From: Tubiluchus corallicola
Taxonomy: Eukaryota > Animalia > Priapulida
Direction of reading: 5' to 3'
Assembly (NCBI GenBank): GCA_030141605.1
Contig: JAQGDQ010000167.1
Coordinates: 211,877-275,876, forward strand
DNA length: 64,000 nt
Shown: positions 26,173-49,409 of the stretch, piece after piece
Position numbering within the stretch: the stretch's first letter is position 1
Layout: each line of letters starts with the position of its first letter
The notes under the pieces: generated by a model
What the model saw: only the letters and a program-made list of their open reading frames with translations
Databases searched by the model: none
Told to the model about the DNA's origin: nothing
Program-made: the position numbers and the translations under genes

Positions 26173-29100
26173 TCACCTGAGGTCCTCCACGTGTTCTCGT
26201 ATAAACGTTTTATGGTACCGACTAACTTTTGTATAAAAACCATACTTTCCATGTCGCGCGCAACCTTCACCCCAACTGACCATGCCGACTAAGTACCATC
26301 GCCCAGCATGTTTCATGATGAATGGACCCCCGCTATCACCCTTACATGGATCACCAATCACCTGCAATATTGTACAGACTAGTTAAGAACACAAATTTTC
26401 ACTCTGTGCATGTGTGCAACCTGTAACACCTACTATTTACAATTAATCCATTGTTAGAAAGCATCTTAAAATGGAACTTTTATTACATTTTCTTTTTCGT
26501 AAGTAAAATTTGTAATCAAATCTGCTAGCTGTGTGAGAAAAAACTTGATTTATACGTTCAATGAGATAGGATTGGATTTGTGTCTGCAAAAGACTGGCAG
26601 TCAAAGTACATTAGTAAAAGTCAGAGGTCAGGGAAATCATTAAAGGTCACATAAACATCGACAAAAACAAGCCAGTATTTTCACAAAAACAAGCCACTAT
26701 TTGGCTAAAAGTGATTAATGGTGTAAAAAAACAGTTACTAAGAAATTTTAAAAATAAAACCAAGTTACGAAGTCAAAGAGCAAATTGTAAACTATTGAAA
26801 AATCTTATCCGTAAGTGTACTAGCTTAGTTAGTATGAATTGCAGGGTGCGTCACATGCTGTAGCCTGCAAAATGTACATTGATTAGTAACTAACTATCTG
26901 TTTTCAGTGTTTTCTTGTAAAGAAAAGTCACTTTTTCTTACTTTGTATATACAATACCAAACAAACAAGTAATAACACATTCAGCTAAATGAACTAATAA
27001 TAAATCAAACAAACAAGCAAAAAATAAATAATAAACAAGCAAATAAATAAATTTGATGATTTAGAGGAGTTTTTTGATGTTTAAACATACCTCACTATAA
27101 TATCCAGCACAAAACATATTTTTCGTGACAGGAAACTTTGTAGAAGCTTTGCACGCTGTAGCATCAACTACCGGAAGTGATATCTCCTGTGTATAGCGAG
27201 GTCGGTCTCCCTTTTCCGCTAATCTTCCCCAACCAGCGACCACACCTAGTCCACCATCACGAGAAAAGAAGTTCCTAGACGAAACACCAAAGAGAAAAGG
27301 TTTTTCACAGTAGAACTTTCAACTTTAGTTATCTGAACAATATAGTACCGATAACAAGTAATCGATTAATCTGAGCTCAGTGATAGGTGTATCATGTTAA
27401 AAAATGCAACTAGCTCCAAAAAACAGTCCAAACTTGTCACATTTTTAGAAATTAACCTGTAATAGAAACAAGTTCATTTTTTGTTGCAACTTGTGATGAA
27501 AATAACAGTTACATGTACCGTTACATTTGCCTAGACTCAAAGCAAACGTTTATTAACTGCATGTTGTATAAATATTTTACTGTGTTGATTATACTCTCCT
27601 TTCATACTGTACAGCACTTGTTACACATCAGTATCTGCGGTGCAAGTTAGCAGTGTATAGCTTCATAGCGTGAATTTTGACAGTCTTATACCATAGTAGT
27701 CATGGGCGTCGGCAGGCAGACTCACTGATGCACATGCATCCACAGAATTTCTTTAATTAAAAATTTTTTATGGCTAAATAAAATTTTTTAGCAGTAAACC
27801 AAGAAACACATCAACCCTTGTTTGTTTGGGCAATAATGAGTTTTAAACTAGTGAACGTGCCTGAGGAAATAGCTTCTAGCAAAATGGTCTAAAATGCAGT
27901 AAAATGCAAGTGTGGCCGAATCGTTCTGCCGTTTAGCTGTGTCCAGTGGGAAAAATTACCACGCGCACAAACTTATTAAAATTTTGTATGAATGGTGGAC
28001 TGTAAACTTGACAGTCTCAAATCAGTTTTATATTTGGCTATCCACATTTTGCTGGGTAGATAATCTTGACGCTAAATAAATTAAGCTTAAGTAATGGGTC
28101 ATCCACATTGCAGTGCATTACGAACTTGCTTTTAAGATATATGACTGCTACAATAGAATACAATGAATATTACCTAGGTAAATGTAGGTAAAATATATTT
28201 ACTAAGGCAGAATTTTTCACGTTTGAGGAAGTCTATGTACCACAATTTATATCTCATTTGAGGCCTCCAAAATGTGCTTAAATACAGAAAATGTGTTGGT
28301 GGCCAGGGCTTACAGTGGTCCCACACAGACCCCCTAGCTGTGCCCATGATAGTATTTACTTTTCTGATGATGAGGAAAGAACTGTAACTGTGACTAGTTA
28401 ATTTCTGTGACAGTGTAAGTTGTAACTGTAATGAGTAACGCGTGCTGTAACAGTTATGTTAGTAAAGTTAATATCTCAACACTGCCTGAATGTCTGTATC
28501 CCAAATTTCAAGTAAATCATAATGTTCAGCATTTAAATGATGAATTGTGGCCTGTGCAGAACGTTAGTGCAACTAATTCATCCTATACATATAGTAAAAA
28601 CAAGCTCCCAAAATTACTTTTACAATTAATTACATGTGTAAAATTTGTTATATGATGAATTAGGCAAATTTTTTCATTTTCTCTGTGCAATTCTACACAC
28701 TGTAAGCCAAGCTTCCCTTATTCAAATGCAGGGCCTACTCAACGAGATGTTATTGTCATGATCAGAGCGTCGTTCATTGCTCACTATCAGAAGCATCTCA
28801 GCCACGTTCGTCAGTGTGTATACATCCTGCCTCTATGAGATAAACAGCCAGAATCGGCAAGGCGAATGAAACCTACTAAAGTGAGAATTGCATCCATTAG
28901 CTGACCAATCTCAGCACCATTCTAAACATCATCACAAAGCATGATGCAGTGACCAATCAGCCAAACAGCTCACCTCTATCTATGTTCACTGCATCTATTT
29001 ACTTATAATAAAAATTTTAACACATTAATAATTTCAAGATGATCAGATCCTAACTTTAGATAAAACTGAAAAATACCTGTTGTGGAATTTCTCTGCAGCC

Positions 29101-48800: not shown

Positions 48801-49409
48801 TTTTAAATATTCATGTCACCTGGCAAAACGGCACTGCATCACCATCCCAGTGTGCCTCACTGATTCACCAAAAAACATATCAGCGATCTTATAGGCAAAT
48901 ATAAAGCAATTTATACTTTTGCATAGTTAGTGAAGCATGGTTTCATAATTTTTTTTCAAACTTTAAGCCTTGTTATCTAAGCTTGCTTCAGACGACTTAT
49001 TGTTAAAATGGCTGTGCCTAATGGTTATCATGGGAGTTCAAATTTACAAGTTTTATACTGCGTTACTGCTAGCGCAAGCTCTATATGCAATAAGACAGCA
49101 TGTTAAGTGGTATGAAGTTTGAAGACGATTTTTAACCTTATTTATGAACAGTGTTTTCCTGTGCTTTAAAAGTACAGGCTGCAGTAACACATCAATTCAA
49201 ACGTTATATTATTTGATACCACTCTTATAAATTACTCCACCACGTCTGCAAAATCAAAAACAGCCAATTACTACTGATTTTATATAAATTCAACGCACAC
49301 ACTTGACATTAGTGTTACTATATTAATGAGTACATAAGGAAAACATGAACTTACCAAATGACAAGCTAACACCCACACTGAAAACTAACAACAAAAACTT
49401 TAGAGACAT
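26173..49409 (-). CDS. Secreted modular serine protease: SP-CBM14-CBM14-Thr/Pro linker-CUB-CUB-TSP1-Ig-Ig-trypsin (S1A), ~1089 aa
   Basis: 19 coding exons joined by splice signals and phase: 49409-49355, 48494-48306, 47516-47341, 46383-46170, 45370-45175, 44050-43875, 41551-41306, 38060-37857, 36964-36743, 35525-35322, 34343-34247, 33614-33415, 32534-32374, 31753-31639, 30895-30771, 30611-30486, 29267-29077, 27274-27091, 26361-26173. They sum to 3270 nt with no internal stop. Catalytic triad intact: TAAHC, DNDIAL, GDSGGP. Confidence 0.85.
27701..28348. mobile_element. hAT-like MITE
   Basis: TIR CATGGGC / GCCCATG; 8-bp TSD ATAGTAGT / ATAGTATT (7/8). Confidence 0.75.
29376..29844. mobile_element. 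hAT-like MITE
   Basis: Imperfect TIR CGGGGTTCCTAC / GTGGGAACCCTA; subterminal TTCCCTGAC repeats; TSD degenerate. Confidence 0.65.
31639..34343 (-). CDS. Protease exons: two I-set-like immunoglobulin domains (four exons)
   Basis: Ig1: [20 protein letters not shown]...IKWLKND...[18 protein letters not shown]. Ig2: [20 protein letters not shown]...ISWLKDN...[19 protein letters not shown]. Confidence 0.9.
31810..32270 (+). mobile_element. Decayed LINE 3' end (CR1/L2-like)
   Basis: Remnant resembling the ORF2 C-terminus (RTN...; [12 protein letters not shown]), a pyrimidine-rich 3'UTR, a GGGGT...ACCCC hairpin and AATAAA; same layout as the 3' end of the TMEM115 LINE. Confidence 0.5.
34929..35318. 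repeat. Inverted repeat with one arm amplified as an 85-bp x4 tandem array
   Basis: TATTCACACGAA starts at 34981, 35066, 35151 and 35236; 34929-34986 is an imperfect reverse complement of part of the unit. Confidence 0.9.
35322..35525 (-). CDS. Protease exon: thrombospondin type-1 repeat (10 Cys)
   Basis: [25 protein letters not shown]...[16 protein letters not shown]; phase 1/1. Confidence 0.9.
36743..41551 (-). CDS. Protease exons: divergent CUB-like domain 2 with long insertion (exons 41551-41306, 38060-37857, 36964-36743)
   Basis: [16 protein letters not shown]...[22 protein letters not shown] ... [16 protein letters not shown] ... [27 protein letters not shown]...FFAAHFFA. All three exons are phase 1/1. 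The donor at 37857 (gttcga) is weak; an in-frame GC alternative exists at 37866. Confidence 0.7.
39113..40094. mobile_element. hAT-like non-autonomous element containing a copy of neighbouring DNA
   Basis: TIR CAGTGGCGGCTCGT / ACGTGCAGCCACTG; TSD GATACAGA / GCTACAGA (7/8). Confidence 0.78.
39184..40637. repeat. Direct duplication of ~445 bp (39184-39628 and 40193-40637)
   Basis: Near-identical sequence at offset 1009 with only scattered substitutions. Confidence 0.95.
40945..41112 (+). repeat. Short dispersed repeat; further copies at ~49000-49170 and, more diverged, ~43655-43810
   Basis: TTAAAATGGCTGTGCCTAA...GGGAGTTYAAATTTA...GTTACTGCTA...GCAAGCTCTRTATGCAATAA shared. Confidence 0.75.
41592..41858 (+). 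mobile_element. tRNA-derived SINE
   Basis: A-box-like CAGTCTAGTGG, B-box GAGTTCGATAC, central GGCCGGTCATACCGAAGACTTTAAAAATGGTACC block, (ATT)n tail. Confidence 0.85.
43185..43510 (-). repeat. Dispersed repeat homologous to 17640-18020
   Basis: Reverse-complement match as above; one end reads TTAAGGG. Confidence 0.75.
43875..45370 (-). CDS. Protease exons: canonical CUB domain 1 (exons 45370-45175 and 44050-43875)
   Basis: CGSHI...GVFYSPGY...[44 protein letters not shown]...IGKFCGS...[18 protein letters not shown]. Confidence 0.92.
45640..45990 (+). mobile_element. Possible decayed CR1-like LINE 3' fragment
   Basis: GC-elevated island with remnant LFDVNTRG...KL, resembling the CR1 ORF2 C-terminus. 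Confidence 0.3.
46170..46383 (-). CDS. Protease exon: Thr/Pro/Ser-rich linker
   Basis: [35 protein letters not shown]...; acceptor ttgacag, donor gtatgt, phase 0 to 1. Confidence 0.8.
47341..47516 (-). CDS. Protease exon: chitin-binding type-2 (CBM14) domain 2
   Basis: [53 protein letters not shown]: 6-Cys CBM14 pattern. Confidence 0.92.
48306..48494 (-). CDS. Protease exon: chitin-binding type-2 (CBM14/peritrophin-A) domain 1
   Basis: [53 protein letters not shown]: 6-Cys CBM14 pattern. Confidence 0.92.
49355..49409 (-). CDS. Protease exon 1: signal peptide [18 protein letters not shown]
   Basis: GCC-ATG context, hydrophobic core, phase-1 donor gtaagt that joins the first CBM14 exon in frame. 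Confidence 0.8.

Follow-up and report, generated by a model that had tools for sequence, protein, structure and literature searches.

A predicted MASP-like serine protease with a chitin-binding head in the priapulid Tubiluchus corallicola

Horseshoe-crab factor C and factor G couple recognition to a zymogen. HP14 has been described as a pattern-recognition initiator zymogen, and mosquito Sp22D was reported to bind chitin but not bacteria (PMC1761132). Arthropods, molluscs, annelids and hemichordates have MASP-like and C1s-like proteases without CCP domains, some of which carry two Ig domains instead (PMC11312191). The 'MASP-related molecules' (MReM) of Gorbushin 2019, cited by Orus-Alcalde et al. 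(PMC9835746), are probably the same proteins as the MASPL of Sun et al. 2024. Here a gene of the priapulid Tubiluchus corallicola is described, which was found in a window of 64,000 nucleotides (assembly GCA_030141605.1, contig JAQGDQ010000167.1, positions 211,877 to 275,876 of the forward strand); all coordinates are those of this window. The gene lies on the minus strand, and its predicted product joins an Ig-Ig-protease core of the two-Ig MASP-like type to a head of two CBM14 domains. The union of such a core with a chitin-binding head appears to be undescribed, while both halves are known separately.

A search with exon 19, which encodes the C-terminal part of the protease domain, yielded 10 relatives from 11 candidates. 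Six of the 10 were Ig-Ig-trypsin proteins, and three of these carry the NCBI name MASP1 or MASP1-like. The scorpion MASP1-like protein P0004 and its unnamed relative P0005 start with three CUB domains, the Ptychodera protein P0007 with two CUB domains, the millipede protein P0010 with a C-type lectin and two CCP domains, and P0008 with two CCP domains; the sixth protein is P0002. Because the front ends vary in this way, from three or two CUB domains to a lectin with two CCP domains, a sugar-binding head on the Ig-Ig core has precedent. Over the Ig-Ig-protease part, the priapulid protein was 36-39% identical to the six Ig-bearing relatives (39% over 448 residues with P0004). Identity within the protease domain was 50% to P0004 and P0005, 46-48% to the other Ig-bearing relatives and 42% to bird factor-IX-like proteins. 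The priapulid protein also showed the MASPL traits of an N-terminal CUB, a pair of Ig domains adjoining the protease and no CCP domain. By these alignments and traits, the Ig-Ig-protease core is assigned to the known invertebrate two-Ig MASP-like family. An earlier note on this DNA, made without database searches, had not recognised the domain combination; the CUB...Ig-Ig-trypsin core has, however, already been described as invertebrate MASP-like/C1s-like (PMC11312191). The novelty is the CBM14 pair, the TSP1 repeat and the degenerate CUB on a known scaffold, not the scaffold itself.

Two-Ig MASP-like proteins, for example those of Centruroides vittatus (XP_067119397.1), Ptychodera flava (XP_070559274.1) and Chamberlinius hualienensis (GAB6024709.1), share with the priapulid protein one or more CUB domains in front, an Ig-Ig arm, a Cys-Gly linker, a basic P1 residue before [IV]VGG and Asp189. 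The priapulid protein differs from the relatives of this type that were found in its two CBM14 domains and stalk, its insert-bearing degenerate CUB, its ten-cysteine TSP1 repeat and Pro190. Neither CBM14 nor TSP1 was present in any of the 10 relatives. A query with the TSP1 exon gave one unrelated TSP1-repeat protein among 13 candidates, a query with exon 18 gave no relatives among 28, and exon 9 had no match among 1.84 billion representatives. The missing relative of the same architecture is weak evidence, because the queries were short single exons and insensitive. A metagenome scan returned a single 13-residue match (L001). The exact combination of CBM14, CUB, TSP1, Ig and trypsin domains, which had been new to the earlier note, was likewise not found in the relatives or, judging by titles, abstract openings and opened papers, in the literature searched; a member with CBM14 could be depicted in the figures of PMC11312191 or in Gorbushin 2019.

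In the priapulid protein, the fusion of chitin binding and protease consists of two CBM14 domains and a trypsin domain in one predicted frame. Chitin-binding domains and low-complexity regions on a trypsin-type zymogen are likewise found in Sp22D, Tequila (GRAAL) and honey bee SP23. A mosaic protease that binds chitin is thus already on record in mosquito Sp22D (PMC1761132). The middle modules of Sp22D and Tequila are, as had been pointed out for these dipteran proteins in the earlier note, SRCR and LDLa in place of CUB, TSP1 and Ig; SP23 adds C-type lectin, kringle and PAN. No SRCR or LDLa module was found in the priapulid gene by Pfam scan of the exon pieces and by motif scan. The fusion is likely to be independent of that in insect Sp22D/Tequila, the proteins being set apart by their module descriptions and not by sequence comparison. 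With MASP-1, MASP-2, MASP-3, C1r and C1s the predicted protein shares a CUB with presumed calcium-site acidic residues, a disulfide-tethered protease and a single activation cut. Its histidine loop is as in MASP-1, and its AGY serine codon is as in the other MASP lineage (PMC8605247, PMC2592599). Unlike the classical MASP/C1r/C1s order of CUB-EGF-CUB-CCP-CCP-protease, neither EGF nor CCP was found here, and the recognition module lies within the same chain, whereas classical MASPs use a separate collectin or ficolin. Factor C, factor G and ModSP/HP14 are similar in principle only, in that pattern recognition is coupled to a zymogen atop a cascade; by description they are set apart by their modules (Sushi, LCCL, lectin, glucan-binding and LDLa) and their other ligands.

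The gene model was rebuilt independently from the raw sequence. Stop-free stretches were collected on both strands, three-frame translations were inspected near candidates, and exons were joined at AG/GT sites. Nineteen exons on the minus strand gave one open frame, which starts with the ATG at 49409, closes with the stop ending at 26173, measures 3,270 nt and encodes 1,089 residues. This is the model that had been proposed in the earlier note, and the domain order given there was borne out by Pfam on exon pieces and by alignments to relatives. All 18 introns were of the GT..AG type and all 18 junctions were phase-compatible. The naive chance of all 18 phases fitting, (1/3)^18 = 2.6e-9, overstates the test because the exon limits were set by eye on three-frame translations, and the phase fit is therefore a consistency check and not an independent statistic. 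Donors were weak at exons 8, 15 and 16; at exons 15 and 16 the sites are supported by an alignment to relatives that has no gaps or almost none, while exon 8 is without homology or RNA support and is the least certain exon of the model. Pfam was run on 18 in-frame exon pieces, exon 1 being too short, and gave no match at E<=1 for seven of them (exons 4, 7, 8, 9, 11, 14 and 15). The median intron of the gene measured 886 nt. Nine further in-phase exon candidates within introns were rejected as non-coding in appearance or lying within repeats.

Exon 1 (49355..49409; donor phase 1) carries the start codon and a signal peptide (residues 1-18) that was predicted from hydropathy alone, the mean over the 8 residues of the hydrophobic core being 3.07. 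It was the sole strong signal-peptide candidate among the ATG-donor pairs there and in introns 1-4, where the others did not exceed 1.43. CBM14 (peritrophin-A) domain 1 is encoded by exon 2 (48306..48494; phase 1-1; Pfam CBM_14, E 1.6e-15), with cysteines at 22, 35, 41, 51, 64 and 72, and domain 2 by exon 3 (47341..47516; phase 1-0; Pfam CBM_14, E 5.5e-17). Both domains show the six-cysteine pattern and scored 57.4 and 62.1 bits, respectively, against the Pfam cut-off of 22.1; they are identical at 33 of 54 residues. Matches of domain 2 in the PDB were the binding domains of chitinase and chitotriosidase, and tachycitin. Exon 4 (46170..46383; phase 0-1) encodes a Thr/Pro/Ser-rich stalk (residues 141-211) without a Pfam match, in which Thr, Ser and Pro make up 39% and cysteine is absent. 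By analogy with known families, the protein would be secreted and the CBM14 pair would bind chitin, and the stalk is probably flexible and glycosylated. A short Thr/Ala-rich open frame on ACA/GCA-like repeats was observed about 500 bp upstream of exon 1 (49886-50026, minus strand) and is probably non-coding or part of the 5' untranslated region.

The stalk is followed by a canonical CUB domain, CUB1, whose first half lies in exon 5 (45175..45370; Pfam CUB, E 9e-10) and whose second half lies in exon 6 (43875..44050; Pfam CUB, E 4.5e-10). In the alignment CUB1 retains the acidic residues E271, D279 and D319, which are the usual calcium-site residues. A CUB calcium site exists in MASPs (PMC2592599). 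Exon 7 (41306..41551; no Pfam match) encodes the N-terminal half of a degenerate CUB-like unit (C341, C364) and the start of an acidic, glycine-rich insert. The remainder of this 80-residue insert (residues 387-466, with 14 Glu and 15 Gly) and C469 are encoded by exon 8 (37857..38060; no Pfam match; weak donor GTTCGA), and the C-terminal half of the unit (C497) by exon 9 (36743..36964). On a profile built from eight CUB domains of relatives, the N-terminal half scored 9.2 bits, which none of 1000 shuffles reached; the C-terminal half scored 1.4 bits, which is marginal, being reached by 59 of 1000 shuffles. When the insert was removed by hand, the unit gave an end-to-end CUB alignment with all four cysteines in register, and the best two of four cuts scored 10-12 bits, while the best of 500 shuffles reached 6.8. 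Single-sequence folds of exons 9 and 7 were discarded (mean predicted local distance difference test scores 41 and 49). Of the two CUB domains that had been read from the sequence before, the first is thus canonical, whereas the second, without a Pfam match and without the acidic residues retained by CUB1, is on this evidence a degenerate CUB-like unit. Intron 7 contains a recent direct duplication of 454 bp (39184-39636 and 40193-40646; 98% identical).

Exon 10 (35322..35525; Pfam TSP_1, E 5.3e-11) encodes a TSP1 repeat with ten cysteines, four above the usual six. A tandem array of about four copies of an 85-bp unit (34980-35324) starts at the donor of this exon and could supply duplicate donors. 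Ig domain 1 (C650, C699) is encoded by exon 11 (34247-34343), which had no Pfam match and was aligned to Ig1 of the six relatives, and by exon 12 (33415-33614; Pfam Ig_3, weak, E 0.047), which also carries the linker cysteine C724. Ig domain 2 (C747, C792, plus C800) is divided between exon 13 (32374-32534; Pfam I-set, E 5.1e-6) and exon 14 (31639-31753; no Pfam match). The extra cysteine pair C724/C800 at the Ig-Ig junction is common to five of the six Ig-bearing relatives. No EGF or Sushi domain was matched by Pfam in any exon piece scanned, and a motif scan of the minus-strand frames of the gene span, introns included, gave no EGF- or LDLa-like cysteine motif.

Exon 15 (30771..30895; no Pfam match) carries C820 and the activation site K839/I840 (Lys codon at 30836-30834). 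The protease domain extends over exon 16 (30486..30611; Pfam Trypsin, E 1e-7), with the histidine-loop cysteines 866 and 882 and the catalytic His881 (30551-30549), exon 17 (29077..29267; E 4.3e-13), with the catalytic Asp937 (29165-29163) and C957, and exon 18 (27091..27274; E 3.2e-8), with C1007 and C1021. Exon 19 (26173..26361; E 2.3e-15) encodes Asp1031 (position 189), Pro1032 (position 190), the catalytic Ser1037, Gly216, Tyr225, Gly226 and the stop. The intact trypsin-type protease reported in the earlier note was found again: the triad H881, D937 and S1037, the K839/IVGG site, the S1 residue Asp1031, Gly193, Asp194, Gly216, Gly226 and the protease cysteines are all present. The codon of Ser1037 is AGC (26334-26332) and that of Ser214 is AGT; AGY codons at Ser195 and Ser214 together with Tyr225 go with thrombin- and complement-type, sodium-responsive proteases. 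The best PDB matches of exon 19 were thrombin and kallikrein, and that of the scorpion relative was thrombin. From known families, cleavage would be expected at K839/I840, and C820-C957 is predicted to form an inter-chain disulfide that keeps the protease attached, as in MASPs. The match of P1 Lys to the Asp189 pocket had been taken to make self-activation chemically possible. Site and pocket are indeed present, but Lys precedes [IV]VGG in four of the six Ig-bearing relatives; MASP-1 and MASP-2 autoactivate, whereas MASP-3 cannot and is a zymogen needing another protease (PMC2592599). Because Lys is family-wide and MASP-3 provides this precedent, the match is not diagnostic and is no evidence of self-activation. 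Relative P0002 has His instead of Lys or Arg before IVGG, implying a different kind of activator. Downstream of the stop codon, a tandem duplication of about 270 bp (25289-25879; 93%) was observed in what is likely the 3' untranslated region, and the first AATAAA stands at 25945.

No run recorded as RNA was found to contain the gene. In run X2, which was about 90% alike to the window and whose RNA type was guessed, one contig joined exon 9 to exon 10 and skipped exactly the 1,217-nt intron 9. A contig of this run also covered exon 13. Among the X2 differences listed in exons 9, 10 and 13, 14 of 20 were synonymous, against 25% expected; three of five coding differences listed for run X1 were synonymous. 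The central part is a real, constrained and spliced gene. A small exon ending at 35564 was rejected, as the X2 contig joins exon 9 straight to exon 10, and other X2 joints were set aside as lying within intronic repeats. Among the X2 pieces listed, none lay on exons 1-3 and no joint was seen upstream of exon 9. The phase 0 start of exon 4 is matched, among the upstream exons of the model, by the end of exon 3 alone; together exons 3 and 4 form one phase 1-1 unit. Introns 1-4 measure 789-957 nt, and no AATAAA occurs in intron 3 (957 nt), which is weak evidence, such an absence not being rare at that length. The CBM14 exons are considered to belong to the gene because exon 1 is the sole convincing signal-peptide exon upstream of CUB1, exons 3 and 4 fit in phase, the intron lengths are usual and intron 3 has no AATAAA, and the fused CBM14-protease form is very probably a real product.

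From its domains, the product may be a chitin-tethered, secreted MASP-like zymogen that docks on exposed chitin and is activated there for wound or immune proteolysis, a reading that we hold with about as much belief as doubt. A MASP-like zymogen would have acquired a chitin-binding head of its own and would be secreted; the CBM14 pair would dock it on exposed chitin while the stalk held the protease out. The chitin surface might concentrate the zymogens enough for activation, in which they might cleave one another or be cleaved by a protease further up. The cut at K839/I840 would then take place on the chitin surface, with the protease retained by the C820-C957 disulfide, and upon wounding or infection the active enzyme would cut cascade proteins at Arg/Lys sites. 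Its targets might be C3/TEP, a clotting protein or another zymogen, and CUB1, TSP1 or the Ig arm might recruit them. Recognition, for which MASPs depend on a separate lectin, would thus become part of the protease chain itself. The fuller proposal of a one-chain chitin lectin pathway, which would sense fungal or wound chitin, self-activate on the fibre and cleave C3/TEP or a clotting protein, and which would have arisen independently of Sp22D/Tequila, is considered unlikely.

Several observations weigh against the docking and activation of a MASP-like zymogen on exposed chitin. In the protease-domain tree (12 rows, none of them a true MASP, factor C or thrombin), 8 candidate rows stood on one side with support of 64/79; a grouping with the factor-IX-like rows stayed acceptable (p-AU 0.205). 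Single-exon queries yielded no relative that bears this head, and so no sign that the fusion is conserved. MASPs dimerise via EGF and CUB1 (PMC2592599), and since the priapulid protein has no EGF domain, only the chitin surface could bring its molecules together. On the favourable side, an oyster MASP-like protease is reported to act together with a lectin in promoting the cleavage of C3 (PMC8605247); this protein with functional data, however, carries CUB and LDLa and not Ig. A Tequila null mutant was without phenotype (PMC1761132). The transcript data and exon phases count on the same side, and they speak for the alternative that something other than the 1,089-residue chain is the main product. 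In that case the CBM14 exons would make a 148-residue peritrophin-like protein, or would be skipped to leave an ordinary MASP-like member of the form signal peptide-CUB-CUB-like-TSP1-Ig-Ig-trypsin. No transcript joining the CBM14 exons to the CUB exons was seen; exons 1 and 5 share phase 1, so that exons 2-4 can be skipped in frame; reading through exon 3 reaches a stop after 6 further codons, giving the 148-residue protein; and one X2 contig covers 46237-46409 unspliced, from exon 4 through its acceptor and 26 nt into intron 3. The lack of CBM14 in the 10 relatives points the same way. Against this alternative, which is regarded as quite unlikely, exon 4 is well formed, open and fits in phase only to exon 3, introns 1-4 hold no second signal-peptide exon, and intron 3 is without AATAAA, which counts weakly. 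The unspliced contig may also be DNA or pre-mRNA, the type of X2 being guessed.

The same protein could also work on the animal's own chitin, anchored in the peritrophic matrix, the cuticle, a tube or a shell matrix, where it would trim matrix proteins or activate zymogens in building, moulting or digestion. A tandem CBM14 pair with a Thr/Pro stalk is the usual peritrophin design, here including exons 3 and 4 as a phase 1-1 unit; TSP1 and CUB are common matrix modules, and self and non-self chitin are inseparable from sequence. This role is considered less likely than wound or immune proteolysis; the protease groups with complement- and clotting-type enzymes (AGY Ser195, Tyr225) and not with simple digestive trypsins, and a multi-domain regulatory arm has been retained. 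Another reading, that the protein attaches to chitin yet has little or no enzyme activity and serves as scaffold or cofactor and not as initiator, draws on residue 190, which is Pro here but Ala or Ser in 11 of 11 relatives checked, and on the second CUB, which lacks the acidic residues and carries the 80-residue insert. Pro190 may weaken the S1 pocket, a further point against activation on chitin, and it gives no support for self-cleavage after Lys because Ser190 aids Lys binding. Its codon (26349-26347) differs, however, by a single base from one for Ala, and the change may represent an allele or an error. As the triad, Asp189, Gly193, Asp194, Gly216, Gly226, activation site and protease cysteines are intact and most of the changes listed in exons 9, 10 and 13 are synonymous, this reading is considered very unlikely.

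The protease gene sits between a G-alpha gene and a DUF1751 gene, all on the same strand. Upstream, four exons of a G-protein alpha subunit (54388-62475, minus strand; Pfam G-alpha) were found, whose C-terminus we assume to be of the Gi type. Downstream lies a DUF1751 membrane-protein gene (23714-24421, minus strand, likely continuing to about 17700-18600), which we take to be TMEM115. As G-alpha-i and TMEM115 are presumably near neighbours on human 3p21, the protease gene may lie inside an old G-alpha-i/TMEM115 gene pair. A long interspersed nuclear element (LINE)-type retroelement (20515-23048, minus strand), whose endonuclease and reverse transcriptase fragments are spread over three frames, is apparently intronic to the DUF1751 gene. 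A MUN-domain gene, presumably CAPS/CADPS-like, whose exons occupy 503-7193 and beyond on the plus strand, converges on the DUF1751 gene. The neighbouring genes do not bear on the function of the protease.

In invertebrates that lack MBL or ficolin, the way in which complement-like cascades are set off is an open question (PMC9835746, PMC8605247), and the two-Ig MASP-like family is a candidate cascade starter in such invertebrates. If the protein instead remodels matrix, it would be a modest addition to the many shuffled invertebrate proteases. Together with the millipede form carrying a lectin and CCP domains, the priapulid gene points to exon shuffling as the means by which the family exchanges its recognition heads. 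The chitin head offers a defined and cheap ligand, which would make ligand-dependent activation of a MASP-like zymogen directly testable.

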